A DNA stretch of 64,000 bases from Roseibacillus sp. (GTDB taxonomy: Bacteria; Verrucomicrobiota; Verrucomicrobiia; Verrucomicrobiales; Akkermansiaceae), in NCBI GenBank assembly GCA_965242925.1, contig CBDEUM010000034.1:128001-192000 (forward strand), read 5' to 3'. The notes under the pieces are model-generated. The model was not told the DNA's origin, ran no database searches, and saw nothing but the letters and a program-made list of their open reading frames with translations. The translations under genes and the position numbers were made by a program. Of this stretch, positions 11,729-60,593 are shown piece by piece. Numbering within the stretch: position 1 is the stretch's first letter; every line of letters begins with the position of its first letter.

Positions 11729-12279
11729 GTACTTGGGGGCCTTTTAGATGCTCCCCGTGCAGGGCGGCAAGTTCAACCTGTACAAGAAAAGAGGCAGCTT
11801 CCTCAAGGGAGTGAGATCGCTAAAGTCTTTAGTCTAGTATTTGTATTTTTTGCAGAACCTTGGATCTCACTCCCTCGATTGACTGCCTGTTGTTGATACA
11901 ACCGCACCATCGGCCGGCGATTTTCAAATTTCTTCAATTAATCCCGAATGAGGCTCCAAAGTGAGCATTGCACTTGAAGCGAATTGGCCAGTCCGCTTGT
12001 CAATAGCCGTCTGGGGGCCCGTGAAAGTTCGCGGCGGTTCGTAATCGGTCAGGCACTTCGGCAAGGCCTGCTGGAGCACGTGTAAGCCCCCTCGGCGAGC
12101 TTGTTGAATTGACTGGGAGCGGTTGACCGAATTTCCCCTGATCCATTCTATGCGTAGAATACATTCCGCGAATCATAGTAGTGATGACATGTTGACGATT
12201 CAGCACCCCGCATCTACATGTCATAATGAGAGGCAGTTCGGCCCGTGTTGGAATAGCAGAAAACTCCCGAAACCGCCGC

Positions 12280-15150
12280 ATGTTGCCATTCCAGGTCCTG
12301 CTATGGGCTGCGATTCTAGGACCTGCTAGCACATCCCTGGGAAATAACGCTCCTGAAGCGACGGCAACCACCACTTCCGCTACTGCCACCTCCACTCCGA
12401 ATGGCCCCGGGGAGGAGCTTTCCTTCAACCTGAGATGGGAGCAAACGGGGACGGCGGAGGGCATCATCACCGGCAGAATCACCTTCCCGGCAGACACGGT
12501 GGGCAACCCGCCCCTCTTGACAGATCCCTCCACCGCAGTGGCCGGGAGCACTCTGGTTCTCAGACGCGAGGGACAGACCTTCATCTACCAGGATGCCGGG
12601 GTTGTTTTCAGTGCTGTCCAACAACTTGATTTCTCTCACGAGATCGTTACCCAGTCCGGCTTCTCTGACTTCAACATCTTCACCGGGGACGGTGAGTTCA
12701 CGGGACTCAACCCGGGGGTTCTGGGCAGCTCAGATCGTATTTATCACCTGGTCAGCATGGCCCCGGGGATCTCAGGGCAACTGGTGGCAACCGATCCCGA
12801 CCCCGATTCCTCCCTGGTCTACAGTCTGGACGAACCGATTGCCGGGTTGGCCATCAACCCGGACGGCAGTTACACCTTCGACCCCTCGGGCCCCGTCCAC
12901 GTGTCTCTGGGGGAGGGGGAAGTCCTGGCGGTGATTGCCGACTGGACAGTCACGGACAACGAGGGAGCGTCGGCCTCGAGCACCCTCACTATCACCGTGA
13001 ACGGGGCCAACGATGAACCGGTGGCCAATGCTGCCACCGCCACTGATCCTGTCAGCGGGCAGTTGGCAGCCAGCGACGTGGATGACAATGCGATGCTCAC
13101 CTTTGCCCTGGATGCCCCGGTGCCGGGCTTGGTCGTCAACGAAGACGGCAGTTACACCTTTGACTCCTCGGATCCCGCCTATGCTGAACTGGTAACGGGT
13201 GAATCGATTGAGGTGATCGCCAACTGGATCGTCACCGATAACGAGGGGGCAACCGCCCCCAGCACCCTCACCATCACGGTGAATGGGTTCAATGATACTC
13301 CTGAAGCGACGGCAACCACCACTTCCGCTACTGCCACCTCCACTCCGAATGGCCCCGGGGAGGAGCTTTCCTTCAACCTGAGATGGGAGCAAACGGGGAC
13401 GGCGGAGGGCATCATCACCGGCAGAATCACCTTCCCGGCAGACACGGTGGGCAACCCGCCCCTCTTGACAGATCCCTCCACCGCAGTGGCCGGGAGCACT
13501 CTGGTTCTCAGACGCGAGGGACAGACCTTCATCTACCAGGATGCCGGGGTTGTTTTCAGTGCTGTCCAACAACTTGATTTCTCTCACGAGATCGTTACCC
13601 AGTCCGGCTTCTCTGACTTCAACATCTTCACCGGGGACGGTGAGTTCACGGGACTCAACCCGGGGGTTCTGGGCAGCTCAGATCGTATTTATCACCTGGT
13701 CAGCATGGCCCCGGGGATCTCAGGGCAACTGGTGGCAACCGATCCCGACCCCGATTCCTCCCTGGTCTACAGTCTGGACGAACCGATTGCCGGGTTGGCC
13801 ATCAACCCGGACGGCAGTTACACCTTCGACCCCTCGGGCCCCGTCCACGTGTCTCTGGGGGAGGGGGAAGTCCTGGCGGTGATTGCCGACTGGACAGTCA
13901 CGGACAACGAGGGAGCGTCGGCCTCGAGCACCCTCACTATCACCGTGAACGGGGCCAACGATGAACCGGTGGCCAATGCTGCCACCGCCACTGATCCTGT
14001 CAGCGGGCAGTTGGCAGCCAGCGACGTGGATGACAATGCGATGCTCACCTTTGCCCTGGATGCCCCGGTGCCGGGCTTGGTCGTCAACGAAGACGGCAGT
14101 TACACCTTTGACTCCTCGGATCCCGCCTATGCTGAACTGGTAACGGGTGAATCGATTGAGGTGATCGCCAACTGGATCGTCACCGATAACGAGGGGGCAA
14201 CCGCCCCCAGCACCCTCACCATCACGGTGAATGGGTTCAATGATACTCCTGAAGCGACGGCAACCACCACTTCCGCTACTGCCACCTCCACTCCGAATGG
14301 CCCCGGGGAGGAGCTTTCCTTCAACCTGAGATGGGAGCAAACGGGGACGGCGGAGGGCATCATCACCGGCAGAATCACCTTCCCGGCAGACACGGTGGGC
14401 AACCCGCCCCTCTTGACAGATCCCTCCACCGCAGTGGCCGGGAGCACTCTGGTTCTCAGACGCGAGGGACAGACCTTCATCTACCAGGATGCCGGGGTTG
14501 TTTTCAGTGCTGTCCAACAACTTGATTTCTCTCACGAGATCGTTACCCAGTCCGGCTTCTCTGACTTCAACATCTTCACCGGGGACGGTGAGTTCACGGG
14601 ACTCAACCCGGGGGTTCTGGGCAGCTCAGATCGTATTTATCACCTGGTCAGCATGGCCCCGGGGATCTCAGGGCAACTGGTGGCAACCGATCCCGACCCC
14701 GATTCCTCCCTGGTCTACAGTCTGGACGAACCGATTGCCGGGTTGGCCATCAACCCGGACGGCAGTTACACCTTCGACCCCTCGGGCCCCGTCCACGTGT
14801 CTCTGGGGGAGGGGGAAGTCCTGGCGGTGATTGCCGACTGGACAGTCACGGACAACGAGGGAGCGTCGGCCTCGAGCACCCTCACTATCACGGTGACAGG
14901 CAGCGCTCCGCCTCCTCTTGAGATCATCAATCTTACGGACAACATCACTTCGGAAGGATTCAACTCCTTGACGATTACCTTCTCGTCTCTCCTCGGAAGA
15001 GCATATGCTGCGGAGCGCTCGAGGGATCTCATTCACTGGAACCACCTGCGTGATATTATCGGTGAGGAGAGCACCACTGACTTCACCGACGATGATCCTA
15101 TCCATGATGGCCAGCCCGTATTCTACCGGGTGAAGGAGGTCAGCCCCTAG
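12280..15150 (+). CDS. Secreted VCBS/cadherin-like repeat surface protein
   Basis: Signal peptide MLPFQVLLWAAILG, five GL.IN.DGSYTFD...LTITVNG-type domains, C-terminal FTDD....PVFYRV domain. Confidence 0.85.
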   Translation: MLPFQVLLWAAILGPASTSLGNNAPEATATTTSATATSTPNGPGEELSFNLRWEQTGTAEGIITGRITFPADTVGNPPLLTDPSTAVAGSTLVLRREGQTFIYQDAGVVFSAVQQLDFSHEIVTQSGFSDFNIFTGDGEFTGLNPGVLGSSDRIYHLVSMAPGISGQLVATDPDPDSSLVYSLDEPIAGLAINPDGSYTFDPSGPVHVSLGEGEVLAVIADWTVTDNEGASASSTLTITVNGANDEPVANAATATDPVSGQLAASDVDDNAMLTFALDAPVPGLVVNEDGSYTFDSSDPAYAELVTGESIEVIANWIVTDNEGATAPSTLTITVNGFNDTPEATATTTSATATSTPNGPGEELSFNLRWEQTGTAEGIITGRITFPADTVGNPPLLTDPSTAVAGSTLVLRREGQTFIYQDAGVVFSAVQQLDFSHEIVTQSGFSDFNIFTGDGEFTGLNPGVLGSSDRIYHLVSMAPGISGQLVATDPDPDSSLVYSLDEPIAGLAINPDGSYTFDPSGPVHVSLGEGEVLAVIADWTVTDNEGASASSTLTITVNGANDEPVANAATATDPVSGQLAASDVDDNAMLTFALDAPVPGLVVNEDGSYTFDSSDPAYAELVTGESIEVIANWIVTDNEGATAPSTLTITVNGFNDTPEATATTTSATATSTPNGPGEELSFNLRWEQTGTAEGIITGRITFPADTVGNPPLLTDPSTAVAGSTLVLRREGQTFIYQDAGVVFSAVQQLDFSHEIVTQSGFSDFNIFTGDGEFTGLNPGVLGSSDRIYHLVSMAPGISGQLVATDPDPDSSLVYSLDEPIAGLAINPDGSYTFDPSGPVHVSLGEGEVLAVIADWTVTDNEGASASSTLTITVTGSAPPPLEIINLTDNITSEGFNSLTITFSSLLGRAYAAERSRDLIHWNHLRDIIGEESTTDFTDDDPIHDGQPVFYRVKEVSP
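12350..14891 (+). repeat. Intragenic tandem repeat, 948-bp unit, about 2.7 copies
   Basis: TCCTGAAGCGACGGCAACC recurs at 12351, 13299 and 14247. Shadow ORFs in other frames are identical between copies. Confidence 0.97.
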
Positions 15151-15159
15151 CTCGCAGAT

Positions 15160-17100
15160 TCAGGAGACCGCGGTGCGGTAGTCACCGTTACGGCGGGTTT
15201 TTCCCTCGGCATCCATGCGTTCGAGAAGAGGCATGATGACCCGTCGACTGGTAGCAAGATGCTGACGCAGGTCACTGGCGGTGGCCTGACCCTGCGACTG
15301 GAGGAAGTCGAGAATTTGTTCACACGCCTGATCATAGCTCTGGGTCAGGATGATGACCTTGTCGGTCAACTCAGTGACAATTCCACCTCGAATAAGGAAG
15401 GAGAGGGCGCGTTGCGAGGATGTCCCGGTGGCCAGTTCAGCCCGACCCGGAGGGCTCAGCGGTTCCCGTCGCAAAGTTTGCTGGATCTTCTCGGCGGCGG
15501 CCCGGATGTCATCGGCAAGTGCTGGAGAAAAGGCCTCTTCCGCCAGAATCGTTCCCTGCTGAATAATGCCCCGCTCCCCAAGGTGTTCCACCATAAGATC
15601 AAAGAGGCCAGGATCGGGCAATCCATCCTGAACGCTTTGCCGGAGATCCTCCAGGTGGAGTCCAGGCAGATCGGCATTCTTCCTGTGGTAATCCGCCACC
15701 AAGCCCGCAGCCCGGGTGAGCAACCCCTCCCACCATGTCGCCGCGGCCAGATGACTGCCAAGTTCACAGGCGACCCCTTCGGCGAGAAGTTTCTCTACGA
15801 CCTCATCGATTTCCCCGTCAGAAAACCTCAGGCGCAGTTTCAGTCCGGCAAGTTCAACCAGGGAATCACGCTCCAGGGCAGAAGTCAGGAGAACCGACAA
15901 ATCGTCTGGAGCCTCCGCCCGCTGCCGCAGGAATCGCACTTGTTCCTCGTTGCGCAATCGCCGCCGACTGGCATCGGCGTCGAGGACCAGCGCTCCCCCC
16001 ACGGTGGCCTCTCCCGACCAGTCGCGAAGGACGACATGATCTCCCACCATCATGAAGCGCGGTTCATCGAGTCGCAGTTGTGCCAGCATGGTCTGGCCGG
16101 CGGAGATGCTCCTGCCCTCGATAAAATAGATGCGCGCCCCGGTGGATCCTGATCCGTGGTGTACCCGTACGCGGCGTCCCGACGGAAGGTCACGCCTGGT
16201 GGCCAATTGACCCGGTATTTCCCGGCTCAGTCGCCGCATGCTGATGTTGACTGTATCCGCCGGCGTCCCCGCCTGTGATCCAGTGAGGAGGCCGCCCCGA
16301 CCCACGCCGGAGCGATCCCTGGCGGAGACCTGTAACTCAGGGAGATTCAGCGCGGTACGCATGCCCGGATGAGCGACCTCCACCGATTGACTGTCATTCT
16401 GGATCGTGCGGACGTGCGCCGCCAGTCCATCCGGTTGCAGCGATACGTCGTCGCCCACGACAAGAGTACCCCCGGAAAGAGTTCCCGTGACCACGGTGCC
16501 GATCCCTTTCACAGAAAACGCCCGGTCCACCGGTAGGAGGGGCTTGCCAAAATCGGCCACCGGGGGAGCCGAAACCAGCTGGGAACACAGCGCCGTCCGC
16601 AACTGTTCGATGCCCTCGCCCGTAAGAGAGGAAACCGGAACGATGGGAGCGTTCTCGAGTATGGTGTCCCGGAGGCTGTCCCTCACAAATTCAATGGAGA
16701 AGTCAAGATCCTCAGCGAGATCCGACTTCGTGAGGGCCACTACGCAACGCTCGACCCCGAGGAATGTCAGGATGTGCAGGTGTTCCTCCGACTGAGGCAT
16801 CCAACCGTCATCCGCTGCAACCACAAAGAGGGCTATATCCATTCCTCCCACACCCGCCACCATGTTATTAACGAAGTCGGCGTGACCAGGAACATCCACG
16901 ATTCCCAGTTCGAACACCGTTTCTGCCTCGGAATCGTCCCGCAGGGAAAGGTGAGCAAAGCCCAGTTCAATGGTCACTCCACGCCTCTGCTCCTCGGGGA
17001 GCCGGTCAGGGTCAGTCCCGGTCAAGGCTTTCACGAGAGACGACTTCCCATGATCGATATGACCAGCCGTCCCGAGAATATAGCGCCGCTCGTTACTCAT
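15160..17100 (-). CDS. selB: Selenocysteine-specific translation elongation factor
   Basis: GTAGHIDHGKSSL, DRLPEEQRRGVTIELGF, DVPGH, TKSD, PVDRAF, and a C-terminal winged helix SRR..MPLLERMD..G.TRR.GDYR. Confidence 0.93.
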   Translation of the reverse strand: MSNERRYILGTAGHIDHGKSSLVKALTGTDPDRLPEEQRRGVTIELGFAHLSLRDDSEAETVFELGIVDVPGHADFVNNMVAGVGGMDIALFVVAADDGWMPQSEEHLHILTFLGVERCVVALTKSDLAEDLDFSIEFVRDSLRDTILENAPIVPVSSLTGEGIEQLRTALCSQLVSAPPVADFGKPLLPVDRAFSVKGIGTVVTGTLSGGTLVVGDDVSLQPDGLAAHVRTIQNDSQSVEVAHPGMRTALNLPELQVSARDRSGVGRGGLLTGSQAGTPADTVNISMRRLSREIPGQLATRRDLPSGRRVRVHHGSGSTGARIYFIEGRSISAGQTMLAQLRLDEPRFMMVGDHVVLRDWSGEATVGGALVLDADASRRRLRNEEQVRFLRQRAEAPDDLSVLLTSALERDSLVELAGLKLRLRFSDGEIDEVVEKLLAEGVACELGSHLAAATWWEGLLTRAAGLVADYHRKNADLPGLHLEDLRQSVQDGLPDPGLFDLMVEHLGERGIIQQGTILAEEAFSPALADDIRAAAEKIQQTLRREPLSPPGRAELATGTSSQRALSFLIRGGIVTELTDKVIILTQSYDQACEQILDFLQSQGQATASDLRQHLATSRRVIMPLLERMDAEGKTRRNGDYRTAVS

Positions 17101-17320
17101 CGGAATGGTTAACTGGTCCAACGATCCGGGCTTTCTCGAAATCGTAGGGAGTCAATTCGAGATGGACACGACTTCTCATGGCGAGTTCCTCCGCCAGTCC
17201 TGCAAGGCGACCGGGCAGGTGTCCGATCACCAGTTTCCCGTTTGGCAGTTCCACACGAAAGACGCGACCCGGCAGGACTTCGCAGATCTCACCGGTGGTC
17301 ACGATAGGAGGTTCGGACAT
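17093..17320 (-). CDS. Divergent translation initiation factor IF-1-like protein
   Basis: 75 aa OB-fold pattern G.I.EVLP..FRVEL.NG..V.GH..G and V.LEL.PYD..KARI; the central basic segment is divergent. Confidence 0.8.
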   Translation of the reverse strand: MSEPPIVTTGEICEVLPGRVFRVELPNGKLVIGHLPGRLAGLAEELAMRSRVHLELTPYDFEKARIVGPVNHSDE

Positions 17321-32376: not shown

Positions 32377-33350
32377 TGGGAGAAGTCACCTACATCGATG
32401 CCATACGCGAAGCGCAACACGATCTTCTCGCCGCCGATGATCGGGTCTTTATTTACGGACAGGATGTCGGCCACTTCGGGGGCGCCTTCAAGGCTACCCG
32501 GGGCTTGAAGGATCTTTTCCCCGAACGGGTCATCGATTCCCCAATCAGCGAAGATGCTATGATCGGACTGGCAGTTGGGGCGGCCATTGAAGGGATGCGC
32601 CCCATTATAGAGATGCAGTTTGCCGATTTCTCTTCGGTGGGCTTCAACCAGATCGTCAACCAGGCGGGAACCCACTTTTATCGAACCGGTGTTCCCGCTC
32701 CCATTACGGTTCGCCTGCCCTGCGGCGGCACCCCGGGCTCGGGCCCCTTCCACAGCCAGATGATGGAGAGCGTCTATGCCTATTATCCCGGCCTGGTGGT
32801 CGTGACGCCCGCCACGGTTGCCGATGCCTACTCGATGCTGATTGACGCAGTGGCTCTCGACGACCCCGTCCTCTTCTGCGAACACAAGTTTCTCTACCGT
32901 TGGCTGAAGTCAGATAGACTGAAGGGCGATGACGAGCGCCTTCCCATCGGGCAGGCCCGCATTGTGCGCGCCGGCAAACATGCCTCCGTGGTTGCCTACA
33001 GTGCCATGGTGCACGAAGCCCTTCGTGCCGCCGAACTTCTCGCAGAGGAGGGCTGGGAAATCGAGGTGGTGGATCTGCGCAGCGTGAAACCCCTCGACAC
33101 CGACACCGTGATAGCCTCAGTGGCCCGAACCGGCCGACTCCTGGCAGTGGGAGAAGCCTTTCCCTGGGGCGGAGTCACCGCCGAGATCGTTTCCCGGGTG
33201 ACCAACGACGGATTTCATCTCCTCGACGCACCACCCCAGCGCTTAAATTCCCGCGACACCCCGGTGCCCTATCATCCCAACCTGTGGGAAGCCCATCGAC
33301 CTACCCTGGCGTCCATTTCGGCTGCTATCCGTAATCTGCTCCAACTTTAG
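32376..33350 (+). CDS. 2-oxoacid dehydrogenase E1 beta subunit
   Basis: GQDVG..GG.F, DSPISE, EMQFADF, GPFHSQ, EHK.LY. Confidence 0.93.
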   Translation: MGEVTYIDAIREAQHDLLAADDRVFIYGQDVGHFGGAFKATRGLKDLFPERVIDSPISEDAMIGLAVGAAIEGMRPIIEMQFADFSSVGFNQIVNQAGTHFYRTGVPAPITVRLPCGGTPGSGPFHSQMMESVYAYYPGLVVVTPATVADAYSMLIDAVALDDPVLFCEHKFLYRWLKSDRLKGDDERLPIGQARIVRAGKHASVVAYSAMVHEALRAAELLAEEGWEIEVVDLRSVKPLDTDTVIASVARTGRLLAVGEAFPWGGVTAEIVSRVTNDGFHLLDAPPQRLNSRDTPVPYHPNLWEAHRPTLASISAAIRNLLQL

Positions 33351-33368
33351 AGCCAACTGTTTAAGACC

Positions 33369-34595
33369 ATGCCTGAGGTTCCCATTCTGATGCCGCAACT
33401 CGGCGAATCAATCGCGGAGGCCACCATCATTCGCCTCAACATAACCGTGGGCGATGAAGTGGTGGCCGACCAGGAGGTCATCGAGGTCGAGACCAACAAG
33501 GCCACCATGGATGTTACTACCCTGTGTGGTGGCACCGTGCGCGAACTCCTCGTCGAAGAGGGAGTAAGCTATCCGATCGGAACCGTTCTCGGCCTCCTTG
33601 AGGTGACTGAAGAGGAGGCGATCCGAACCGGGGTCCAGGCGACGGGAACGACGGAGTCCTCCGAAACCACCTGCGAGGCCGACGAGGAGCCTCCCCGAGC
33701 CCACTTCGCAACTCCCGAAGGCGGTGCCCGCGAACCGCGTAAGGTGGAGCCCAGCATCCGGGGACTGTCGGTTCCGGCCGGCATGAAAGGGGCCCACTAC
33801 CTTTCTCCCCGCATGAAGGCCCGCATGGACGAACTCGGCCTGCGGGCGGCGGACATCTCCGCCATCGTGGGAAGTGGATCGGGTGGACGGGTCACCGTGG
33901 AGGATCTTGAGCAGTTTCTGGATTACGTCTCTACCTGGCCTTCCGGCCAGGCCTCGTCCATGCGCCTGTCAGTAGCCGACTCCATGCGGCGAAGTTGGAC
34001 ACGACCTCTGGCCTCGGTAGGTCGCCCGGTCGCGCTTGAGAACCTGCTTGATTACCGGCGCAGCCTCGACCCCAAACCGCCGCTGACGATTTTCCTGCTT
34101 CGTGCCTTTGGCAAGGCGTTGGCGGAACAACCGGCCTCCGCAGGCTATCTTATCGGCGAGCAGATCATCCCTCCCAGGGCCTTCGACATCGGAGTGGCAG
34201 TACAGGTTGAGGACGGCGTCCTGGTCCCCGTTCTTCGCAGGATCGACACCCGCACGATTGCAGAGTTGATGGAGGAATACCTCGACCTCGTCCGAAAGGC
34301 ACGCGAGCGGCGGGTTCCAGAGGAGAACATCGGCGGGGGAATCGCCACGGTCACCAACTTCGGAACCTTCGGCCTGATGTGGGGCACCCCCATTCCTCTG
34401 CCCAGTGAAACTCTCATTCTGGGAATCGGAGCCGGGGTGAAGAAGCCGGTCTGGTCTCAGGAAAAGGGAAGTTTTATTCCCGTTACCGAAGCAGATCTCA
34501 TGCTGACCTTTGATCACCGGGTGGTCGATGGGGGCGGGGCCGGCATGTTGCTCAATCGCTTGAACGAACTCCTCCAGGAACCGGAAAACCTCTGA
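33369..34595 (+). CDS. Dihydrolipoamide acyltransferase E2
   Basis: MPQLGES, lipoyl motif EVETNKA, E3-binding GSG.GGRVT..D, catalytic FDHRVVDG. Confidence 0.92.
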   Translation: MPEVPILMPQLGESIAEATIIRLNITVGDEVVADQEVIEVETNKATMDVTTLCGGTVRELLVEEGVSYPIGTVLGLLEVTEEEAIRTGVQATGTTESSETTCEADEEPPRAHFATPEGGAREPRKVEPSIRGLSVPAGMKGAHYLSPRMKARMDELGLRAADISAIVGSGSGGRVTVEDLEQFLDYVSTWPSGQASSMRLSVADSMRRSWTRPLASVGRPVALENLLDYRRSLDPKPPLTIFLLRAFGKALAEQPASAGYLIGEQIIPPRAFDIGVAVQVEDGVLVPVLRRIDTRTIAELMEEYLDLVRKARERRVPEENIGGGIATVTNFGTFGLMWGTPIPLPSETLILGIGAGVKKPVWSQEKGSFIPVTEADLMLTFDHRVVDGGGAGMLLNRLNELLQEPENL

Positions 34596-34610
34596 CTCGA
34601 CGACAACCTG

Positions 34611-34940
34611 ATGAGCGAAGGATTACCTGAGGCCACCCAGCGGGTTGTTGAAACTCCCTATGGCAGGGCGGTGGGATCATCCTATCGGTGGGAGGGCGGG
34701 CAATACTGCGCGATCCACACGACCCGGGGTGTGGTGGGATGCGGTATTTTTGATATCGCCTGTGCCAATGAATTCGGCATGGCATTTGCAGTCGCCAAGG
34801 GCACCCGGGAACATCCGCTCCTTGATCCAGAGGACCTGTATGAAGCCTCCATCGTCCGGGTCAGTGAATCCGCCCGAGCGCTCGGCATTGAGGAAGGCAT
34901 GACGGGAAAGGAGGCCCTCGCGTGCATGCTGAGGGCTTGA
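34611..34940 (+). CDS. YunC-family (DUF1805) protein
   Basis: G.VGCG.FD, A..LGI.EGMTG.EAL. Confidence 0.75.
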   Translation: MSEGLPEATQRVVETPYGRAVGSSYRWEGGQYCAIHTTRGVVGCGIFDIACANEFGMAFAVAKGTREHPLLDPEDLYEASIVRVSESARALGIEEGMTGKEALACMLRA

Positions 34941-44227: not shown

Positions 44228-45271
44228 TTATCCACCCGCTTCCTGCAGCAACCGCAACCGATCAAGGGCGGCCCCCGAAGTGATCAGTTCCCGTGCCTGC
44301 GTAACCCCGGCATCCAGATCTTTCGTTATACCCGCACAGGCCAGACCTGCTCCCGCATTGAGAAGAACCATGTCGAGCTTGGGTCCGGTTTCGCTTCCGT
44401 CCAAGATGCCGGTGAGAATAGCAGCGTTCTCGCCTGCATCCCCACCCTGCAGATCCGCCACCACGGCTTCAACGAGGGAGAAATCCTGTGGCCGGACTTC
44501 CTCCTCAACGTGTTCCTTCCTCGTTCCTGATCTGCAAATTTGAGTCGGCCCCATGGTGCTCAATTCATCAACCGATCGCCCGTCGCCCGTAGTTCCATGC
44601 ACTGCCCAGGCTGATTCACGTCCCAGGCGCTGCATAATATCTGCGTAGACGGGAGGCAGGCCGGGATTGAATACCCCCACGAGTTGACAACTGGGGCGGG
44701 CGGGATTGAGGAGTGGGCCGATCAAATTGAAGATGGTCCGCACTCCCTTCTCGGCCAGAATTTTGCGGACCGGCATGATCGCCTTGAAAGCCGGGTGATA
44801 GAGAGGCGCGAATAGAAAGCCCACCCCGGCCCTTCTGAGGCATTCCCGGAACCCCTCGGGAGGCAGATCGATGCGGATGCCCAGGGCTTCCAGGACATCG
44901 GCACCCCCGCTCTTTGAGGTGATCCCCCGGTTTCCGTGCTTGAGAACCGTTACGCCACCGGCGGCAATCACAAACATCGAAGTAGTGGAAACATTAAAGA
45001 GGTTCAGCTTGTCTCCACCTGTTCCACACACATCGATTGACGGTGCCTCCAGTCCGAGCAGTCCGACCTCCGGATCTATCGCCCGGTCGAGCAACTCGCT
45101 GACAAACCGGGCAATCTCCGGGGCGGTTTCTCCTTTCCGTGCCAGCGCTTCAAGGAAGCAGGCTTTCTGTCCGGGGTCGGCGTCTTCATCCAAGAGAAAC
45201 TCGACCGTGACCCTGATGTGGTGAGAGTCCAGTTCGCGCCCGCATTCAAGCTGGGCAATCAGGTCGTCCAT
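44228..45271 (-). CDS. trpD: Anthranilate phosphoribosyltransferase
   Basis: DVCGTGGD...FNVST, KHGNR..TSKSG.ADVL, FAP.YHPA, RTIFN.IGPL.NP. Confidence 0.95.
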   Translation of the reverse strand: MDDLIAQLECGRELDSHHIRVTVEFLLDEDADPGQKACFLEALARKGETAPEIARFVSELLDRAIDPEVGLLGLEAPSIDVCGTGGDKLNLFNVSTTSMFVIAAGGVTVLKHGNRGITSKSGGADVLEALGIRIDLPPEGFRECLRRAGVGFLFAPLYHPAFKAIMPVRKILAEKGVRTIFNLIGPLLNPARPSCQLVGVFNPGLPPVYADIMQRLGRESAWAVHGTTGDGRSVDELSTMGPTQICRSGTRKEHVEEEVRPQDFSLVEAVVADLQGGDAGENAAILTGILDGSETGPKLDMVLLNAGAGLACAGITKDLDAGVTQARELITSGAALDRLRLLQEAGG

Positions 45272-45335
45272 CGTTCCTTCCATCATGAGGTTTCGGTAAA
45301 TTGTCTGTTGGTCGGCAAGCCCTGATTCCTTGATG

Positions 45336-45917
45336 TCAGCCAAAGTAGGGCGGCTCGTTGCCCGCCTTCCATTTGATGTTGCATCCGCTGCTGGGAGAGG
45401 ATCCGCCGGGTGCTTCACCATCGTTCAATAATGCATTCACTGCCGCCCTCAGGTCTGCCCCGGTTGCCTCCACACCGTCTCCAGGACGGGAGGAGTCAAA
45501 CTGCCCCGCGTAGAACAGGTGTCCCTCGCCATCCAGCAGGAAGAAATCGGGAGTGCAGGCGGCCGACCACTCCTTTGCCACCTCCTGGCTCTCGTCGTAG
45601 AGGTAGGGAAAAGCCCACCCCGACTCCGCCGCGAACGGCCCCATCCTGTCCGGATGGTCGGCGGGATATTTCTCCACGTCGTTGGCCATGATCGCCACCG
45701 TGTTGACACCCGCAGCCGCAATTTCCTCCGCCAGTCGCCCCACCGCATCCGCCAGATGAACGACAAACGGGCAATGGTTGCAGGCAAAGATCACCAGAGT
45801 CCCCTCTTCACCCCGCAACCCTGCGAGGGTGTGAACCTGACCATTCGGTTCCGACAATTCGAAGGCGGGGGCAGGATCACCGGCCTGAAGGCGAAAGGTG
45901 GACTGGACTTCAGACAT
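45336..45917 (-). CDS. Thioredoxin-fold (AhpC/TSA-like) protein
   Basis: CNHCPFV, FPYLYDESQ.VA, A.CTPDFF, GCNIKWK. Confidence 0.9.
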   Translation of the reverse strand: MSEVQSTFRLQAGDPAPAFELSEPNGQVHTLAGLRGEEGTLVIFACNHCPFVVHLADAVGRLAEEIAAAGVNTVAIMANDVEKYPADHPDRMGPFAAESGWAFPYLYDESQEVAKEWSAACTPDFFLLDGEGHLFYAGQFDSSRPGDGVEATGADLRAAVNALLNDGEAPGGSSPSSGCNIKWKAGNEPPYFG

Positions 45918-45994
45918 GACGAAACCGGGATAGGATACCTGACGCTTGCCGTGAAGAGAAATCAAGTCAACCATGGACCTGAATAGACGTCCAG

Positions 45995-47113
45995 ATGTTC
46001 TCCGACCGTGAAGAGGCTCGTTATGAGCGCCACTTTTCCCTCCCCTCATTCGGGCCGGAGGGCCAACTTGCCCTGCGCAATTCCTCCGTGCTCTGCATCG
46101 GCGCAGGCGGACTCGGATCACCGGCAGCCCTTTATCTCGCTGCAGCGGGGACAGGACGCCTCGGCATCGTGGACGACGATACAGTCGATTTCTCCAATTT
46201 GCAGCGGCAAATCCTCCACGACGAAAGCCGGGTGGGCGCGTCCAAGGCCGAAAGTGCGCGAGCACGTCTCTCGGGCCTGAATTCCGATATTTCCGTTGAG
46301 GCATACCAGCAGAGACTCGACGCTGGCAACGCAATGGATTTGATCAGCCGCTACGATGTCGTGGTTGACGGCTCCGACAATTTCCCAACCCGCTTTCTGG
46401 TAGCGGACTCCTCCTGGCTCCTCGGCAAGCCTCTGGTGGCTGGCGCGATCCATCAGTTTGAGGGGCAGCTCAGCGTCTTCGATCCACGTCTCCCCTCCCC
46501 CTGCTATCGTTGCCTTCTTCCGGAACCCCCACCAGTCGGCACGGTTCCGACCTGAGAAGAAGCGGGCGTATTGGGCGCTCTTCCCGGCGTGATCGGGACC
46601 CTCCAGGCCATGGAAGCGCTGAAGATCCTCACAGGGCATGGCACCAGTCTGGCCGGTCGAATGCTGCATTACGACGCCACCGATGCTCGTATGCGGGAAA
46701 TTGTCCTCAAGTCGGATCCATCCTGCGCGCTGTGCGGAGAAAGCGCCACAATCACCGAACCCGTCGACTATGAGAAACCAGAAGCGAGTGGGAGCGCGTT
46801 GAAGGAGATCAGCGTCGAGACCGGCCGCGGGCTTCTGCAGAAGGGATTCGGTGGAATTCTACTCGATGTGCGTGAGCGCGACGAGCATGCCTGGGCACAC
46901 CTTGAGGGCTGCCGCCTTGCTCCCTTCAGCGAGTTCATGTCTCACCTCCACGACCTCCCGCGGGATCGACCCTATCTCGTTTACTGCAAGTCGGGCCAGC
47001 GCAGCGCTCACGCGGCGGCGATGATGACCGAAGCCGGCTTTCCAGACGTGACCAACCTGCGGGGTGGCATCGTAGCCTGGCTCGATGCCAATGGCCCGGT
47101 CCTTCAGGGCTGA
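45995..47113 (+). CDS. moeB: MoeB/ThiF E1-like adenylyltransferase-rhodanese fusion with in-frame UGA at codon 187 (probable selenocysteine)
   Basis: RY.RH, GAGGLGSP, SNLQRQ, DGSDNF.TR, CYRC, VPT*EEAGVLG.LPG, CALC, rhodanese YCKSG.RS; both ORF halves are in one frame, 372 codons. Confidence 0.88.
46556..46598 (+). promoter_or_regulatory. Candidate bacterial SECIS hairpin(s)
   Basis: Either GAAG-A-AGCG / CGCT-CTTC (46556-46583) or TCCCGG-CGTGA-TCGGGA (46582-46598), immediately 3' of the UGA; folded by eye. Confidence 0.45.
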
Positions 47114-47137
47114 AGGGCTTCTATCTGATTGGATTCT

Positions 47138-48319
47138 CTAGACCTCATTCTGCATCTCTTCCGCGTAGCGATGCACCCAGATGCTCTGCACCAGTCCGAG
47201 CAGAAACATGCAGATCACCACAAAGGTTCCCGAGTAACTGATGAGCGGTAGTGGAATACCCGTGATCGGCATGATCGAAACGCACATGCCTATATTCTCG
47301 AAGATGTGGGCGAACAGAAGCGCAACAACTCCGGCAGCGATGATCTGTCCTGCAAAATCACGGCTGTAAAACGCGACAAAGAGACACTGGATCAGTAACA
47401 GGGCAAAGCCTGTGATGAGCAGGAGACTTCCCCGAAATCCCTGCTCTTCCGCGATCACCGCAAAGATATAGTCGTTGTGAGCAGTCTTCCAGGGAATGTC
47501 CTTGCGATGATGCAGGGAGTCCTTGGAGGTGCTCCCGTAGCCTGCCCCTCGCCAACCCGCCTTACCGACCGCCATGGTGACTCGATACTCGGCATAGTTC
47601 TTGTCCGTGTTGGTTATATGGCCCCGCTGCAGATTCTCGAGGAAGTTGTTGATACGCGCGTTCCCACGCTCCGAAGCCCCGGGCAACACGATGAAATAGA
47701 TCAAGGGCACAACCCCGGCTCCGATCAATGCCATGAAGAGAAGATACCGGAATGGAATCCCCCCCACCAGCATGGTGACAAACGCGACCGGCAACCACAC
47801 GATGGCCGATCCCATGTCACCGTTCTTCATAACCAGCAGGAACGGCACACCACAAAGACCTGCAATAATGCCCAACCGACACACCGGGTGCCCGAGAATC
47901 CGGTGTATCCTGGGCAGCGTCTGAAAAGTGAAACCCACCATGATGATCCCTGCCGCTATGACCAGCTGGGTGGGTTGAAAGCTCAAGCCCATCACCGTGA
48001 GTTGGTGTACTTCCGACCCTTGGGACATGAGGATCAGCAGCATCACGATTCCCACCAGATACATCGGGATGCCCAGCCACATCAGCCAACGGTAATCGAC
48101 CAGCGCGACTGCGAAATACACGAGGCTCCCGATGACAATCCATAGCTTCTGCCGGTCCGCAAACCACTCGCCCCAGAGATCGGGCTGATCGAGCAGGTCC
48201 GGCACTGGAATATGGCGTGCCGCGCTCTCGATGCTGAACACCCCAAAGACGAGCAGGCCGTACATGGTGAGGACAAGCACCCAATTCATTCCGAGGAATT
48301 TTCGGAAGAGCGGAGTCAT
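47138..48319 (-). CDS. rodA: SEDS-family peptidoglycan polymerase, RodA-like
   Basis: FQP, D.GSA, H.DYIFAVIAEE.GF, NIGM...IMPITGIPLPLISYSG. Confidence 0.88.
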   Translation of the reverse strand: MTPLFRKFLGMNWVLVLTMYGLLVFGVFSIESAARHIPVPDLLDQPDLWGEWFADRQKLWIVIGSLVYFAVALVDYRWLMWLGIPMYLVGIVMLLILMSQGSEVHQLTVMGLSFQPTQLVIAAGIIMVGFTFQTLPRIHRILGHPVCRLGIIAGLCGVPFLLVMKNGDMGSAIVWLPVAFVTMLVGGIPFRYLLFMALIGAGVVPLIYFIVLPGASERGNARINNFLENLQRGHITNTDKNYAEYRVTMAVGKAGWRGAGYGSTSKDSLHHRKDIPWKTAHNDYIFAVIAEEQGFRGSLLLITGFALLLIQCLFVAFYSRDFAGQIIAAGVVALLFAHIFENIGMCVSIMPITGIPLPLISYSGTFVVICMFLLGLVQSIWVHRYAEEMQNEV

Positions 48320-48526: not shown

Positions 48527-49312
48527 TCAATCGTCAAGAAACCCTGTCAACGGACTGCTCGCCTCTGCCCGATCATTCTGCATGGGCAGGCCTGCCTCAA
48601 AAGCGGTGCGTCCTGCCTCCACTGCAGAATGGAAGGCCCGCGCCATGCTCACCGGGTCCCCTGCCACCGCTACCGCCGTGTTCACGAGGACGGCATCGGC
48701 CCCCATCTCCATCGCTTGCGATGCGTGACTGGGCGCTCCGATCCCCGCATCCACCACTACGGGTACGTTAGCCTGCTCAATGATGATTTCAATCTGGTCC
48801 CGGGTTGTCAGACCACGATTCGATCCTATGGGGGCCCCGAGGGGCATGACGGTGGCAGCGCCTGCGTCCTCCAGACGTTTGGCCAGCACGGGATCGGCAT
48901 TAATGTAGGGCAAGACGGTGAACCCCTCTTTTATGAGGGTTTCGGCGGCAGAGAGCGTTTCGATGGCATCAGGCAGAAGGTAATTGGGGTCCGGGTGGAT
49001 CTCGAGTTTGATCCACTTGGGCAGACCCGCCGCTTCTGCAAGTCGGGCAAGCCGTACGGCCTCCTCGGCATTCATTGCCCCACTGGTATTGGTCAGGAGG
49101 AGATATTTCTCCGTATCTACGTAGTCCAGTATGTTGGCAAAGGAATCCCCCTCCCCGCTCACGTCGACCCGGCGCAGCGCGACCGTCACGATTTCGGCCC
49201 CGGAAGCGTCCAACGCCTCACGCATCACTTCCAGAGAACCGAACTTGCCGGTGCCTAGCAGGAGGCGAGACGAAAATGCGCGCCCCGCAATCTCTAGTCC
49301 CACAGCGCTCAC
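48527..49312 (-). CDS. thiG: Thiazole synthase
   Basis: [46 protein letters not shown]. Confidence 0.97.
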
Positions 49313-57284: not shown

Positions 57285-58367
57285 ATGGAATTTGGTGGCC
57301 TGATCGAACAGCGCCGGGAACGCCTGGCGGAACTGGAGGAACTCATCTCCCAGCCGGACTTCTATAACGACCAGAAGGCCGCCGCGGAAGTGATGAGGGA
57401 GCATCGTGGACTCCAGAAACTCATGAACCTCTGGGAAACCTACCAATCCGCAAACCTGAATCTGGAGGAGAACCGCGAACTGGCTAGAGACGAAGACACC
57501 GAGATCGCCGCCATGGCAACCGAGGAGATTCCGACCCTTGAAGCGGCTCTTCCCGGATTGGAGGAAAACCTGCAATATGCCCTCCTGCCTCAGGATCCGA
57601 CCGAGGAGCGCAATGCACTTGTAGAAATCCGGGCCGGTGCGGGCGGTGACGAAGCCTCTCTCTTCGCAGGAGAGGTTATGCGCATGTACGAACGCTACGC
57701 GGAGAACTGCGGCTGGAGGTGCGAGCAACTGGAGAGCAGTCCATCCGAAGTAGGAGGCTACAAGGAGGTGGTGCTCAAGGTAAGCGGAGACGAGGTTTTC
57801 CGGCGTATGAAGTATGAAAGCGGTGTCCACCGCGTCCAGCGGGTGCCCACCACCGAGACGCAGGGACGCATTCATACCTCCACCGTAACGGTAGCGGTGA
57901 TGCCCGAGGCACAGGACGTCGATATTGAACTGAAGATGGATGAGCTGCAGATCCAAGCCACCCGCTCAAGTGGCCCGGGAGGACAGCACGTCAACACCAC
58001 CGACTCTGCGGTACAGGTCACTCACCTTCCCAGCGGGATTCAGGTGAAATGCCAGGACGGGAGGAGTCAGGGTCAGAACAAGGAGAAGGCCCTTGAGATT
58101 CTCCGGTCCAAATTGTTTGAAGCGAAACAGCACGAGGAACAGGAGAAATACTCGGCCCAGAGGCGCGCCCTGATCGGCTCGGGAGATCGATCCGAGAAGA
58201 TCCGGACCTATAATTTCCCGCAATCCCGTGTCACTGATCACCGTATTAATCACACCTCCCACAATCTGGAAGGAATTCTAACGGGCTCGGTCGAAGAATT
58301 CACCGAAGAACTGCAGAAGGCAGAGATGTCCCAACGTCTCGCAGAATCCGGCCTCAAGCCCGAATAG
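57285..58367 (+). CDS. prfA: Peptide chain release factor 1
   Basis: EIRAG.GGDEA, ESGVHRVQRVPTTE (PxT), GPGGQ, RSEKIRTYNFPQ. Confidence 0.97.
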   Translation: MEFGGLIEQRRERLAELEELISQPDFYNDQKAAAEVMREHRGLQKLMNLWETYQSANLNLEENRELARDEDTEIAAMATEEIPTLEAALPGLEENLQYALLPQDPTEERNALVEIRAGAGGDEASLFAGEVMRMYERYAENCGWRCEQLESSPSEVGGYKEVVLKVSGDEVFRRMKYESGVHRVQRVPTTETQGRIHTSTVTVAVMPEAQDVDIELKMDELQIQATRSSGPGGQHVNTTDSAVQVTHLPSGIQVKCQDGRSQGQNKEKALEILRSKLFEAKQHEEQEKYSAQRRALIGSGDRSEKIRTYNFPQSRVTDHRINHTSHNLEGILTGSVEEFTEELQKAEMSQRLAESGLKPE

Positions 58368-58391
58368 GAGGATCGGCGCTATCCTCATCCC

Positions 58392-59261
58392 ATGAAGACC
58401 GTCCTGGAATGCATCCAAAGCGGGGCAAAATACCTCCGGGACCGCGGTGTCGACGGGGCCAGACGTAACATGGAGTGGTTGGTGGCCCGGCAAATGGAAT
58501 GCAGTCGTATCGAACTCTACACTCAGTTCGACCGCCCCATGTCTGAAGCCGAGCTCGAGCCGTTGAGGGATCTTCTCAAGCGACGGAGCCTGGGAGAACC
58601 ACTCCAGCACCTCCTGGGGACAGTGGAGTTCTGTGGCCGGGAGTTCCTCTGCGATCAACGCGCACTGGTCCCCCGACCTGAAACCGAAGAACTGATCGAA
58701 GAGGTCCTGAAACTGGAATTTCTCCGCCCGGCCCGCGTGCTCGACATGGGGACAGGCAGCGGCGTAATTGGCATCACCGTTGCCTTGGCCCTCGCTGAGG
58801 ACTGCCGGGAAACCGTTCTCGCCGACATTTCTGCCGACGCGCTCGGCCTGGCACGTGAGAATGCGGAAAAACACGATCTGGCTCCGGTCCTTCTGCAAAG
58901 CGATCTTTTCACGGAGGTTGAAGGAACCTTCAATTTGATCGTGGCCAACCTCCCCTACGTCGCCGACGGGGAGAGGGAGCTCCTTTCCCGGGAAGTCTCC
59001 CACGACCCGGACCTGGCCCTCTTCGCAGGCCCCGGGGGCCTCGACGCCTTCCAGCGCTTTTTCCCCGCGGTCCCTGCTCATCTCGCTCCCGGCGGTTGGG
59101 TTGCTCTTGAGATCGGCGCCAACCAGGGGCAACAGGTGACCTCTCTCGCCGAAACCTGCGGATTTGAATCCATTTGTCTCGGCAATGATCTTTCCGGAAA
59201 TCCCCGCTTTGTCTTTGCGCGGGCAGCCGGACATGACGAAGATACCCCCGCTCCACTCTAA
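58392..59261 (+). CDS. prmC: Release factor glutamine methyltransferase
   Basis: EPLQH.LG, ALVPRPETE, DMGTGSG, NLPY; follows prfA. Confidence 0.95.
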   Translation: MKTVLECIQSGAKYLRDRGVDGARRNMEWLVARQMECSRIELYTQFDRPMSEAELEPLRDLLKRRSLGEPLQHLLGTVEFCGREFLCDQRALVPRPETEELIEEVLKLEFLRPARVLDMGTGSGVIGITVALALAEDCRETVLADISADALGLARENAEKHDLAPVLLQSDLFTEVEGTFNLIVANLPYVADGERELLSREVSHDPDLALFAGPGGLDAFQRFFPAVPAHLAPGGWVALEIGANQGQQVTSLAETCGFESICLGNDLSGNPRFVFARAAGHDEDTPAPL

Positions 59262-60530
59262 ATGGATAAACTTCTCGTCCACGGAAACGGATCCCTGCAG
59301 GGATCCATCAATATCTCAGGATCGAAGAATGCCTCCCTGCCCATCCTGGCGGCCTCTCTTCTCTCCAGCGAACCTTCCATCGTTCGGAGGGTTCCCGACG
59401 TCTCGGACACCAATTACATGCTGCAGATCCTCCGAGCCCTGGGGGCGGAGGTAGAACGATCCAGTGGCACGGTACGGGTGGAACCCGCCAGCATTGCCCC
59501 GGAAGCCCCCTACGACCTTGTCCGCAAGATGCGGGCCTCCATCTGCGTGATGGGACCACTTCTGGCCCGGGTGGGGCGTGCCAAGATTTCCCTGCCCGGA
59601 GGATGTGTGATTGGGGACCGCCCGGTCGACCTTCATCTCAAGGCCATGCAGGGGTTGGGAGCCCGGGTCGAGATGGAAGGCGGGGATATCATCCTGAGCG
59701 CCCCCGGGGGACTGCTTGGCGCTGAAATAGATATGCGTGGTAAACACGGTCCCACCGTGTTGGGGACCGATAACCTGATGATGGCCGCAGTTCTGGCCAA
59801 GGGCACCACCGTGATTGATTCTGCCGCCAGCGAACCGGAGGTGGTGGACCTTGCTAATTTCCTCGTCAAAATGGGGGCCCGCATCAAGGGAGCCGGTACC
59901 CGGAGAATCGAGATCAAAGGGGTCGAAGAGCTCAAAGGCGTGGAACACACCATCATCCCTGACCGGATCGAGGCGGGAACATTCATGGTGGCAGGTGCGA
60001 TGGCGGGAGAAGGGGTGACCTTGCGGCGGGTGTGCCGGGAGCATCTCAAGGCTGCCACCGAAAAACTGGAAGAGGCCGGGCATGACGTGCTCTTCAACGA
60101 GACCGGCACGGAAGTAACGATCTCGCCAGGGGAAGCGCCCCGGGGTTGCGACGTCACCACTGCTCCCTACCCCGGATTCCCCACCGACATGCAGGCCCAG
60201 TTTACGGCCATGTTTGCCACGACGCCGGGCATCTCGCTGGTGGAGGATGCCATATTTCCCCAGCGCTTCATGCATTGCTCCGAAATGAAACGCATGGGGG
60301 CCGACATCACGGTCGACGGAGGGCGGGCGCTGGTGCGAGGGGTCCAGCGTCTCAGTGCGGCCCCGGTCATGGCCTCGGACCTTCGGGCTTCGGCCGCCCT
60401 TGTGCTTGCTGCACTCAAGGCTGAAGGAACCACCGAAATCAACCGCCTTTACCATATCGACCGGGGATACGAGCATATAGACGACAAACTGCTGCAACTT
60501 GGGGGACAGGTCGAACGCGTCCCGGCCTGA
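59262..60530 (+). CDS. murA: UDP-N-acetylglucosamine 1-carboxyvinyltransferase
   Basis: SG.KNA.LP, KMRAS, PGGC.IG.RP, PDRIEAGT, PYPGFPTDMQ, DLRA.AAL, HIDRGY. Confidence 0.97.
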   Translation: MDKLLVHGNGSLQGSINISGSKNASLPILAASLLSSEPSIVRRVPDVSDTNYMLQILRALGAEVERSSGTVRVEPASIAPEAPYDLVRKMRASICVMGPLLARVGRAKISLPGGCVIGDRPVDLHLKAMQGLGARVEMEGGDIILSAPGGLLGAEIDMRGKHGPTVLGTDNLMMAAVLAKGTTVIDSAASEPEVVDLANFLVKMGARIKGAGTRRIEIKGVEELKGVEHTIIPDRIEAGTFMVAGAMAGEGVTLRRVCREHLKAATEKLEEAGHDVLFNETGTEVTISPGEAPRGCDVTTAPYPGFPTDMQAQFTAMFATTPGISLVEDAIFPQRFMHCSEMKRMGADITVDGGRALVRGVQRLSAAPVMASDLRASAALVLAALKAEGTTEINRLYHIDRGYEHIDDKLLQLGGQVERVPA

Positions 60531-60593
60531 CAACCCTTCCCGGGAAGATGTTCCATATTGGCAGTTGCATCATGACTATGATAAGAAACTAAC

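Follow-up and report, generated by a model that had tools for sequence, protein, structure and literature searches.

A selenoprotein form of MoeB has been predicted from marine metagenomes since 2005, when a 'Molybdopterin biosynthesis MoeB protein' represented by 11 sequences was listed as one of 15 new selenoprotein families of the Sargasso Sea (Zhang, Fomenko & Gladyshev; PMC1088965). In 2008 the family had 19 sequences in the Global Ocean Sampling data, where it was filed under pfam05237 (MoeZ_MoeB) (PMC2398784), reviews of 2022 and 2026 list it with the representative MBT7809913.1 (PMC9312934, PMC13188914), and it is given as not detected in the symbionts of Olavius (PMC1976440), all according to the accessible portions of these reports. 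An enzyme of related design is Uba4, which activates Urm1: as set out in the accessible text of PMC6007339 and PMC11662940, a loop cysteine (Cys202 in the Chaetomium thermophilum protein, Cys225 in yeast) forms a thioester with Urm1, and thiocarboxylation needs this Cys together with that of the rhodanese domain. In the literature on MoeB and on selenoproteins of Verrucomicrobia, subscription journals not being covered, we found no biochemical study of a selenocysteine (Sec, U)-containing MoeB. Here we describe a gene of this type in a stretch of 64,000 nucleotides (the window, positions being counted from its first letter) from a contig of a marine bacterium, Roseibacillus sp. (CBDEUM010000034.1). 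It is very probably one intact selenoprotein gene, in which the UGA at codon 187 would be read as Sec by means of tRNA-Sec, SelB and an RNA hairpin lying 29–45 nt downstream. The first-pass annotation of the window, made from the letters alone, had pointed to predictions of Sec-MoeB from marine metagenomes, and rightly so.

The gene (Table 1) forms a single frame of 372 codons whose sole internal TGA is codon 187. As the first-pass annotation had noted, and as re-reading of the sequence confirms, it appears as two open reading frames (ORFs) in the same frame, 45995–46555 (186 aa, ATG start) and 46571–47113 (180 aa, TTG start), with the TGA and five further codons between them, and the motifs on both sides of the TGA are intact: GAGGLG, SNLQRQ (residues 67–72), both CxxC pairs and CKSGQRS are all found in the read-through translation of 372 residues, which runs ...PPPVGTVPT-U-EEAGVLGALPGVIG... 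around U187. Pfam recognizes one unbroken ThiF domain at residues 10–244, across the TGA (3e-77), and a Rhodanese domain at residues 288–364 (2e-15); the older family pfam05237 presumably took in the C-terminal portion of the present ThiF domain, to which residue 187 belongs. Among the NCBIfam models the MoeB subfamily PRK05690 passed its cut-off (299 bits versus 266), but the equivalog cut-offs were missed for PRK08762 (425 versus 449), MoeZ PRK07878 (371.4 versus 647) and PRK07411 (350 versus 633), and because the score lies under all three the protein was not assigned to the MoeZ/MoeB equivalogs. The start of the form MF(S/T)(D/E)RE is common to 11 of the 14 other Sec-type Roseibacillus orthologues (the starts include MFTDRE in genomes G005 and G019, MLTDRE in G011, MLNDRE in G001 and MFSDRD in G010). 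In a search of solved structures U187 aligned with three cysteines: Cys187 of Escherichia coli MoeB (1JW9), Cys184 of ThiF from the same species (1ZUD) and that of the TSCGEAG motif in the C. thermophilum protein Uba4 (6YUB/6YUC/6Z6S). Judged from these alignments and domains, the product is an E1-like sulfur-carrier-activating enzyme in which the loop Cys would be replaced by Sec, the persulfide-carrying residue of the rhodanese domain still being Cys. An enzyme of just this kind had been proposed in the first-pass annotation, and the Sec/Cys pattern, the selection and the hairpin constraint described below support it.

Codon 187 was compared by a six-frame search of 41 genomes (our own, 19 congeners and 21 others from the family or order), 38 of which gave a match at E ≤ 1e-30. 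An orthologue was present in 17 of the 20 Roseibacillus genomes, with TGA in 15 (one of them cut by a contig end) and TGC in two (G017 and G007); two congeners gave no match in this search and one had a short paralogue only. TGA was also found in G020, which belongs to another genus (52% identity), and in three metagenome-assembled genomes of Verrucomicrobiales (L045, L047 and L048), so that overall 19 genomes (15 Roseibacillus and four other Verrucomicrobiales) carry TGA at this position and 69 other homologues all carry TGC or TGT, counts that omit 13 order-level matches without an internal stop. The alternation of TGA and TGY among relatives, by which the first-pass annotation had set store, is therefore seen. 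The 81 loci drawn from a species-representative collection and two regions have TGA in 16, TGC in 32, TGT in 33 and no other codon; 13 of the 16 TGA loci are Roseibacillus genomes already counted in the six-frame search. The TGA forms in the DNA of 14 congeners are 65–86% identical to this protein and the proteins of the Cys-type congeners 61–65%, and homologues with Cys number in the hundreds (372–390 aa, about 50% identity), being single chains named adenylyltransferase/sulfurtransferase. Several Sec-competent genomes, both Cys-type congeners among them, keep Cys at codon 187. A maximum-likelihood tree of 34 rows (16 from Roseibacillus, eight from elsewhere in its clade of Verrucomicrobiales and 10 from farther away, about 55 loci being left out) placed the 14 Sec-type Roseibacillus sequences in one clade (100/98), sister to the two of Cys type, and the other four Sec rows in a poorly resolved group with three Cys rows; it requires at least two changes between the Sec and Cys states, in either direction.

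Two features of the sequence context were seen in the course of this comparison. Residue 186 is Thr in all 19 Sec forms (VPT-U or APT-U) but in only one of the 69 Cys forms, which mostly have Ser, Asn or Gly, and a G directly follows the UGA in all Sec forms; this pattern may reflect a context effect on recoding or may be a lineage signal. The orthologue at L016 (G013:C120) has a second in-frame TGA at codon 155 (QFE-U-QL), where all others have Gly; an error of sequencing, a recent lesion or some other cause could explain it.

Selection on the two sides of the UGA was compared by the method of Nei and Gojobori in the 14 full-length Sec-type Roseibacillus genes (91 pairs, the gene cut by a contig end being left out). 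The median ratio of nonsynonymous to synonymous substitution (dN/dS) was 0.079 for codons 1–186, 0.092 for codons 188–250 and 0.136 for codons 251–372; for codons 188–372 taken together it was 0.122, with a maximum of 0.27. Many pairs are synonymously saturated and the ratios come from 43–84 finite pairs, but the five closest pairs gave values of 0.08–0.27 on both sides of the TGA. Relaxed selection 3′ of the TGA, which the first-pass annotation had named as speaking against its reading, was not seen in these 14 genes by dN/dS; the selection found there is purifying, which argues that the part 3′ of the TGA is translated.

A hairpin under nucleotide-level constraint lies downstream of the UGA and is our candidate selenocysteine insertion sequence (SECIS; Table 1). 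Its core (46583–46597, codons 197–201) uses the same codons in each of the 14 sequences. Of the 173 degenerate codons at which the amino acid never varies only seven are codon-invariant, five of them being codons 197–201 and only two falling among the other 168, and this block of 15 nt is also the longest invariant nucleotide run (the next-longest is 5 nt), such a run occurring in none of 200,000 shuffles. The block is changed in both Cys-type congeners. The selD gene of the same genome, which has a UGA of its own, carries a hairpin at +28/29, a matching spacing, and the other Sec lineage (G020, L045, L047 and L048) has a different hairpin of 7 bp at +16 to +35 whose loop also begins with CGUG. 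The 46582–46598 hairpin also has the form described for the MoeB selenoprotein family of 2005, namely a stem-loop 3′ of the UGA with G in its small apical loop. The argument for a SECIS function thus combines synonymous-site constraint, spacing and the G-U in the loop, and on these grounds the hairpin is put forward as a candidate. A second small hairpin (Table 1) is built from Gly/Ala codons and is variable, and so is not independent evidence.

The genome carries most of the genes for Sec insertion. The first-pass annotation had placed selB within the window, where it is indeed found, but as 15160–17121 on the minus strand and not as 15160–17100. Elsewhere in the genome selD (on contig C14) has its own UGA at the canonical SelD site and is thus of Sec type, and selC is present as a single tRNA-SeC(tca) gene on C30, no other of the 46 tRNAs having a tca anticodon. 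Thus, of the further genes that the first-pass annotation had looked to elsewhere in the genome, selD and selC are there, but selA was not found in this assembly. Searches with TIGR00474 and PF03841 gave no match in the assembly, which is 89.9% complete. Of the 19 congeners 18 carry the gene, as does G020; the family members G021–G024, among them G023 with its Cys form, gave no match. Where relatives have selA, a contig end is in several cases no more than about 1.2 kb away (for example G002:C1:6–1349, G020:C295:72–1403, G015:C84:423–1769 and G013:C326:684–2024), and from this position its absence here may be an assembly gap.

The gene is thus intact, conserved and selected across its UGA, which stands in the column of the catalytic Cys and is followed by a constrained hairpin, and from this we infer that Sec is inserted at codon 187. 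Several observations weigh against that conclusion, the missing selA being the first. The hairpin is short (6 bp) and does not have the GGUC loop of the fdhF-type hairpins that stand at +12 to +16 in the same genome; its invariance leaves no covariation to be seen; the stretch of 68 nt behind the UGA, taken alone, gave no stabler a fold than shuffled sequence (z +1.35, with 187 of 200 shuffles at least as stable); and an Rfam scan of 45000–48000 at E up to 10 returned no SECIS family, only a chance match to a lncRNA. RNA-library contigs (X15 and X17) cover parts of the gene before and after the UGA, none of them running across it, and it should be noted that such a library may contain DNA. As regards function, Cys187 of E. 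coli MoeB is dispensable, so that the role of the residue may differ from that in Uba4, and the carriers considered below are assigned from gene content only, the gene standing in no cluster with them.

Four other explanations of the UGA were weighed. In the first the gene is split, or its termination regulated, so that a 186-residue fragment is made and the C-terminal part is produced from an internal start, either the TTG at 46571 or the conserved GTG of codon 199. The frame listing does show two separate ORFs, and GTG199 lies inside the invariant block, which could in principle be an initiation site; however, no purine-rich run resembling a Shine-Dalgarno sequence precedes GTG199, the block folds as a hairpin at the spacing of the selD SECIS, and TTG193, with which the second ORF starts, is not conserved (ATT, CTA, CTC or CTT in other species). 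A split would also cut one ThiF domain in two, and every Cys-type homologue is a single chain, and we consider it very unlikely that the gene is used in this way. No more probable is the insertion at UGA187 of an amino acid other than Sec (Cys, Trp or Gly) through near-cognate read-through or a suppressor tRNA. The failure to find selA in this assembly and the want of protein-level evidence would both suit such a reading, but the only tca tRNA among the 46 is tRNA-SeC, the TGA forms occur only in genomes with the Sec machinery (as the distribution of selA given above illustrates), and a conserved hairpin follows codon 187. Moreover, TGA terminates this gene and several of its orthologues and is therefore a normal stop here.

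That the UGA is a nonsense mutation in a decaying moeB-like gene is less probable still. A gene caller sees a premature stop, and full-length calls of the TGA forms are absent from the protein collection: among 5.8 billion clusters no full-length protein more than 66% identical was recorded, which fits the expectation of the first-pass annotation that standard annotation would call the gene a pseudogene. Decay is nevertheless hard to reconcile with the presence of the same TGA in 19 genomes down to 52% identity, with a dN/dS of 0.12 downstream, or with the lack of frameshifts and of other stops in 18 of the 19, G013 having one extra TGA. An error of sequencing or assembly at one base of a TGC or TGT codon has next to no probability, as the TGA is present in 15 separate Roseibacillus assemblies and a 19,113-nt contig from another public seawater run (word depth 20) covers the whole gene with three differences, none of them at the TGA.

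If UGA187 is read as Sec, homology with Uba4 suggests that the enzyme would adenylate the C-terminal glycine of a carrier of the ThiS/MoaD type. Attack of Sec187 on the adenylate might then produce a selenoester where Uba4 has a thioester, and/or Sec187 might resolve a later acyl-disulfide through a Se–S bond with C331, whose persulfide would finally yield the thiocarboxylate of the carrier; this selenoester and Se–S chemistry is modelled on Uba4 and on the general behaviour of selenols. The likely carriers would be ThiS (for the thiazole of thiamine) and MoaD (for molybdopterin, needed for example by the Sec-containing formate dehydrogenase). The genome carries a MobA–MoaD fusion with MoaE, plus ThiH–ThiS, the genes for the latter being on a different contig from thiG, and a SAMP/MoaD-like carrier lies beside a short E1 paralogue that is 37% identical and has no loop Cys. 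As the Sec enzyme is the only E1 with a rhodanese domain found in the genome, this gene content points to it as the likely activator of ThiS and/or MoaD. A carrier-activating role for the subfamily is supported by P0121, a homologue of 486 aa on a 4.09-Mb contig, in which a ThiS/MoaD domain (PF02597) is fused in front of ThiF and Rhodanese. The suggestion of the first-pass annotation that the enzyme might handle selenium on its carrier finds no support, and we regard the loading of selenium rather than sulfur as highly improbable. It is possible, although we put it forward tentatively and with rather less than even confidence, that this is a natural seleno-E1, in which Sec187 forms a selenoester with the C-terminus of the carrier or serves as the nucleophile that resolves the acyl-disulfide, with a Se–S bond to the rhodanese Cys as the outcome, and that it arose or was rebuilt at least twice in Verrucomicrobiales, since the hairpins of the two lineages differ (+29 versus +16) and the tree needs at least two changes. 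Were this true, a seleno-E1 would offer faster or less oxidation-sensitive activation of sulfur carriers in oxic sea water.

Table 1. Features of the Sec gene and its surroundings, in positions of the window
Feature	Position	Strand	Remarks
Whole gene, ThiF/MoeB adenylation plus C-terminal rhodanese	45995..47113	+	Final stop TGA at 47111–47113; MoeZ/Uba4-like domain order
In-frame UGA, codon 187, very probably read as Sec	46553..46555	+	Conserved TGA versus TGC/TGT; catalytic-Cys column
Nucleotide-binding GAGGLG, residues 36–41	46100..46117	+	From translation
Zinc CxxC pair 1, C170/C173	46502..46513	+	Aligned with CxxC of MoeB/ThiF
Zinc CxxC pair 2, C244/C247	46724..46735	+	Aligned with MoeB/ThiF structures
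Rhodanese active-site C331 (YCKSGQRS), codon TGC	46985..46987	+	Cys in all Roseibacillus-set orthologues compared
Candidate SECIS, 6-bp hairpin with 5-nt loop CGUGA	46582..46598	+	29–45 nt after U of UGA; RNAalifold consensus of 15 sequences
Possible second small hairpin, weak	46565..46579	+	+12 to +26, consensus fold; varies among species, some pairs broken
193-aa Redoxin/AhpC-TSA-fold protein, CNHC motif	45336..45917	-	Divergent, 77 nt from Sec-gene start codon
Thiazole synthase thiG	48527..49312	-	Pfam 7e-107; 1.4 kb downstream of Sec gene, beyond rodA/ftsW
selB, selenocysteine-specific elongation factor	15160..17121	-	Pfam GTP_EFTU, Beta-barrel_SelB, SelB-wing_2, SelB-wing_3; TIGR00475 287.5 bits versus cut-off 242

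The Sec gene stands alone between two minus-strand genes, the divergent redoxin gene and rodA/ftsW (47138–48319). The redoxin gene adjoins it in all 15 Sec-type Roseibacillus loci and at two Cys-type loci (L021 and L046), and was not adjacent at L017, L020, L045, L047 or L048. A role for the redoxin as a Sec-specific partner was considered and rejected, as two Cys-type genes have it as a neighbour and four Sec-type genes do not; it could reduce the oxidised enzyme, but a functional link is only a guess. A seemingly conserved ORF of 155 aa (45519–45986, plus strand) was rejected as a gene, being the antisense shadow of the redoxin gene on the opposite strand. Elsewhere in the window selB is adjoined by a gene whose product of 974 aa has bacterial cadherin-like and Big_9 domains (12226–15150, plus strand); on the strand opposite, a pattern of ORFs recurs with a period of 948 nt, which suggests that this gene contains long tandem repeats.

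Further genes with an in-frame UGA lie outside the window, and were found by a genome scan (TGA, hairpin and codon usage) followed by NCBIfam and Pfam. The scan gave 3,051 candidates, and the ranks of 75th for the present gene and 185th for selD show it to be a weak detector; the next candidates within the window, 58281–60569 and 33324–34622 (both minus strand), matched no Pfam family, look like antisense frames and were rejected. The formate dehydrogenase alpha subunit FdhA (C22:62350–65205; TIGR01591, 726 bits versus 666) has its UGA at the canonical site (NCSRA-U-HAPTVAG) with a GGUC hairpin at +15. The others comprise an AhpD-like peroxidase-related protein (CYY-U; C14:245518–246237, minus strand), two thioredoxin-fold proteins (SASW-U-GxC; C22:23068–23835 and C14:612993–613760) and an FG-GAP protein with a DsbD_N domain (PST-U-CSTFC; C34:28896–30719). 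Apart from these, a much-duplicated family of FG-GAP/UnbV_ASPIC/TlpA-like/TPR proteins of 800–1400 aa was seen, each with one in-frame TGA in the motif DL-U-SxxWR(Q/T)VV and with an fdhF-like GGUC hairpin at +12 to +14 after the UGA. In our genome (G000) its loci include C12:87870–92069, C12:49642–52248, C17:48854–50974, C20:14635–18165, C13:130395–134276, C28:2531–6451, C22:98095–101703 and C30:359064–363140, among others. Among the 41 genomes searched in the order 11 had matches to the family, as many as 17 copies occurring in one genome, and exactly one TGA was present in 86 of the 91 matches listed; none of the words FG-GAP, VCBS, ASPIC, UnbV or CRTAC1 occurs in the accessible text of the 2026 selenoprotein review.

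The Sec codon is almost certainly real, and its recognition is an annotation correction within a predicted family known since 2005 rather than a new kind of selenoprotein. The picture drawn at that time is unchanged, and what is added is an organism, an architecture and a testable element: new here are the genus of the host, a domain order like that of Uba4, natural pairs of Sec and Cys forms inside a single genus, and a hairpin under constraint that is not of the GGUC type. Gene callers split the gene in two and no full-length TGA form is on record, so that these abundant marine bacteria wrongly appear to have defective pathways for thiamine and the molybdenum cofactor. The Sec and Cys versions within Roseibacillus are a ready pair with which the benefit of selenium in acyl-transfer and persulfide chemistry could be approached, and the hairpin would, if read by SelB, be an element that acts without a GGUC loop and about 15 nt farther from its UGA than do the genome's hairpins of fdhF-like form.

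Set beside the described systems, the gene resembles the MoeB selenoproteins of 2005 and 2008 in belonging to COG0476/PF00899, in coming from marine bacteria, in having a UGA paired with Cys and in the stem-loop downstream, although, as the comparison is with the published description, the identity of the Sec column in the two is a probable one, at which the filing under pfam05237 gives an indirect hint. In the accessible portions of those two reports the family is given without organism, domain architecture or biochemistry, whereas the present gene comes with a defined genus, E1–rhodanese order, hairpin and distribution of Sec and Cys inside the genus. The hairpin, like a SECIS of the E. coli fdhF type, lies within the ORF soon after the UGA, has G-U in its apical loop and is predicted to be read by SelB, but its loop is CGUGA and not GGUC, its stem is of 6 bp and it starts at +29 rather than at the +12 to +15 seen here in FdhA and the FG-GAP family. 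With E. coli MoeB and ThiF the protein shares an adenylation domain of about 250 residues (E values of 1e-56 and 9e-53, respectively) and both zinc CxxC pairs, but these enzymes have no rhodanese domain and carry Cys, not Sec. The fusions of MoeZ/MoeB with rhodanese (PRK07878, PRK08762 and PRK07411) match it at full length over both domains, and it differs from them in scoring under the equivalog cut-offs and in having Sec at the loop Cys. Uba4 and its counterpart MOCS3, the eukaryotic activators of Urm1, have the same domain order, a loop residue in the same column and the conserved rhodanese Cys; unlike them the present enzyme is bacterial, has Sec in place of the loop Cys, presumably serves ThiS or MoaD rather than Urm1, and is predicted by analogy to pass through an acyl intermediate.

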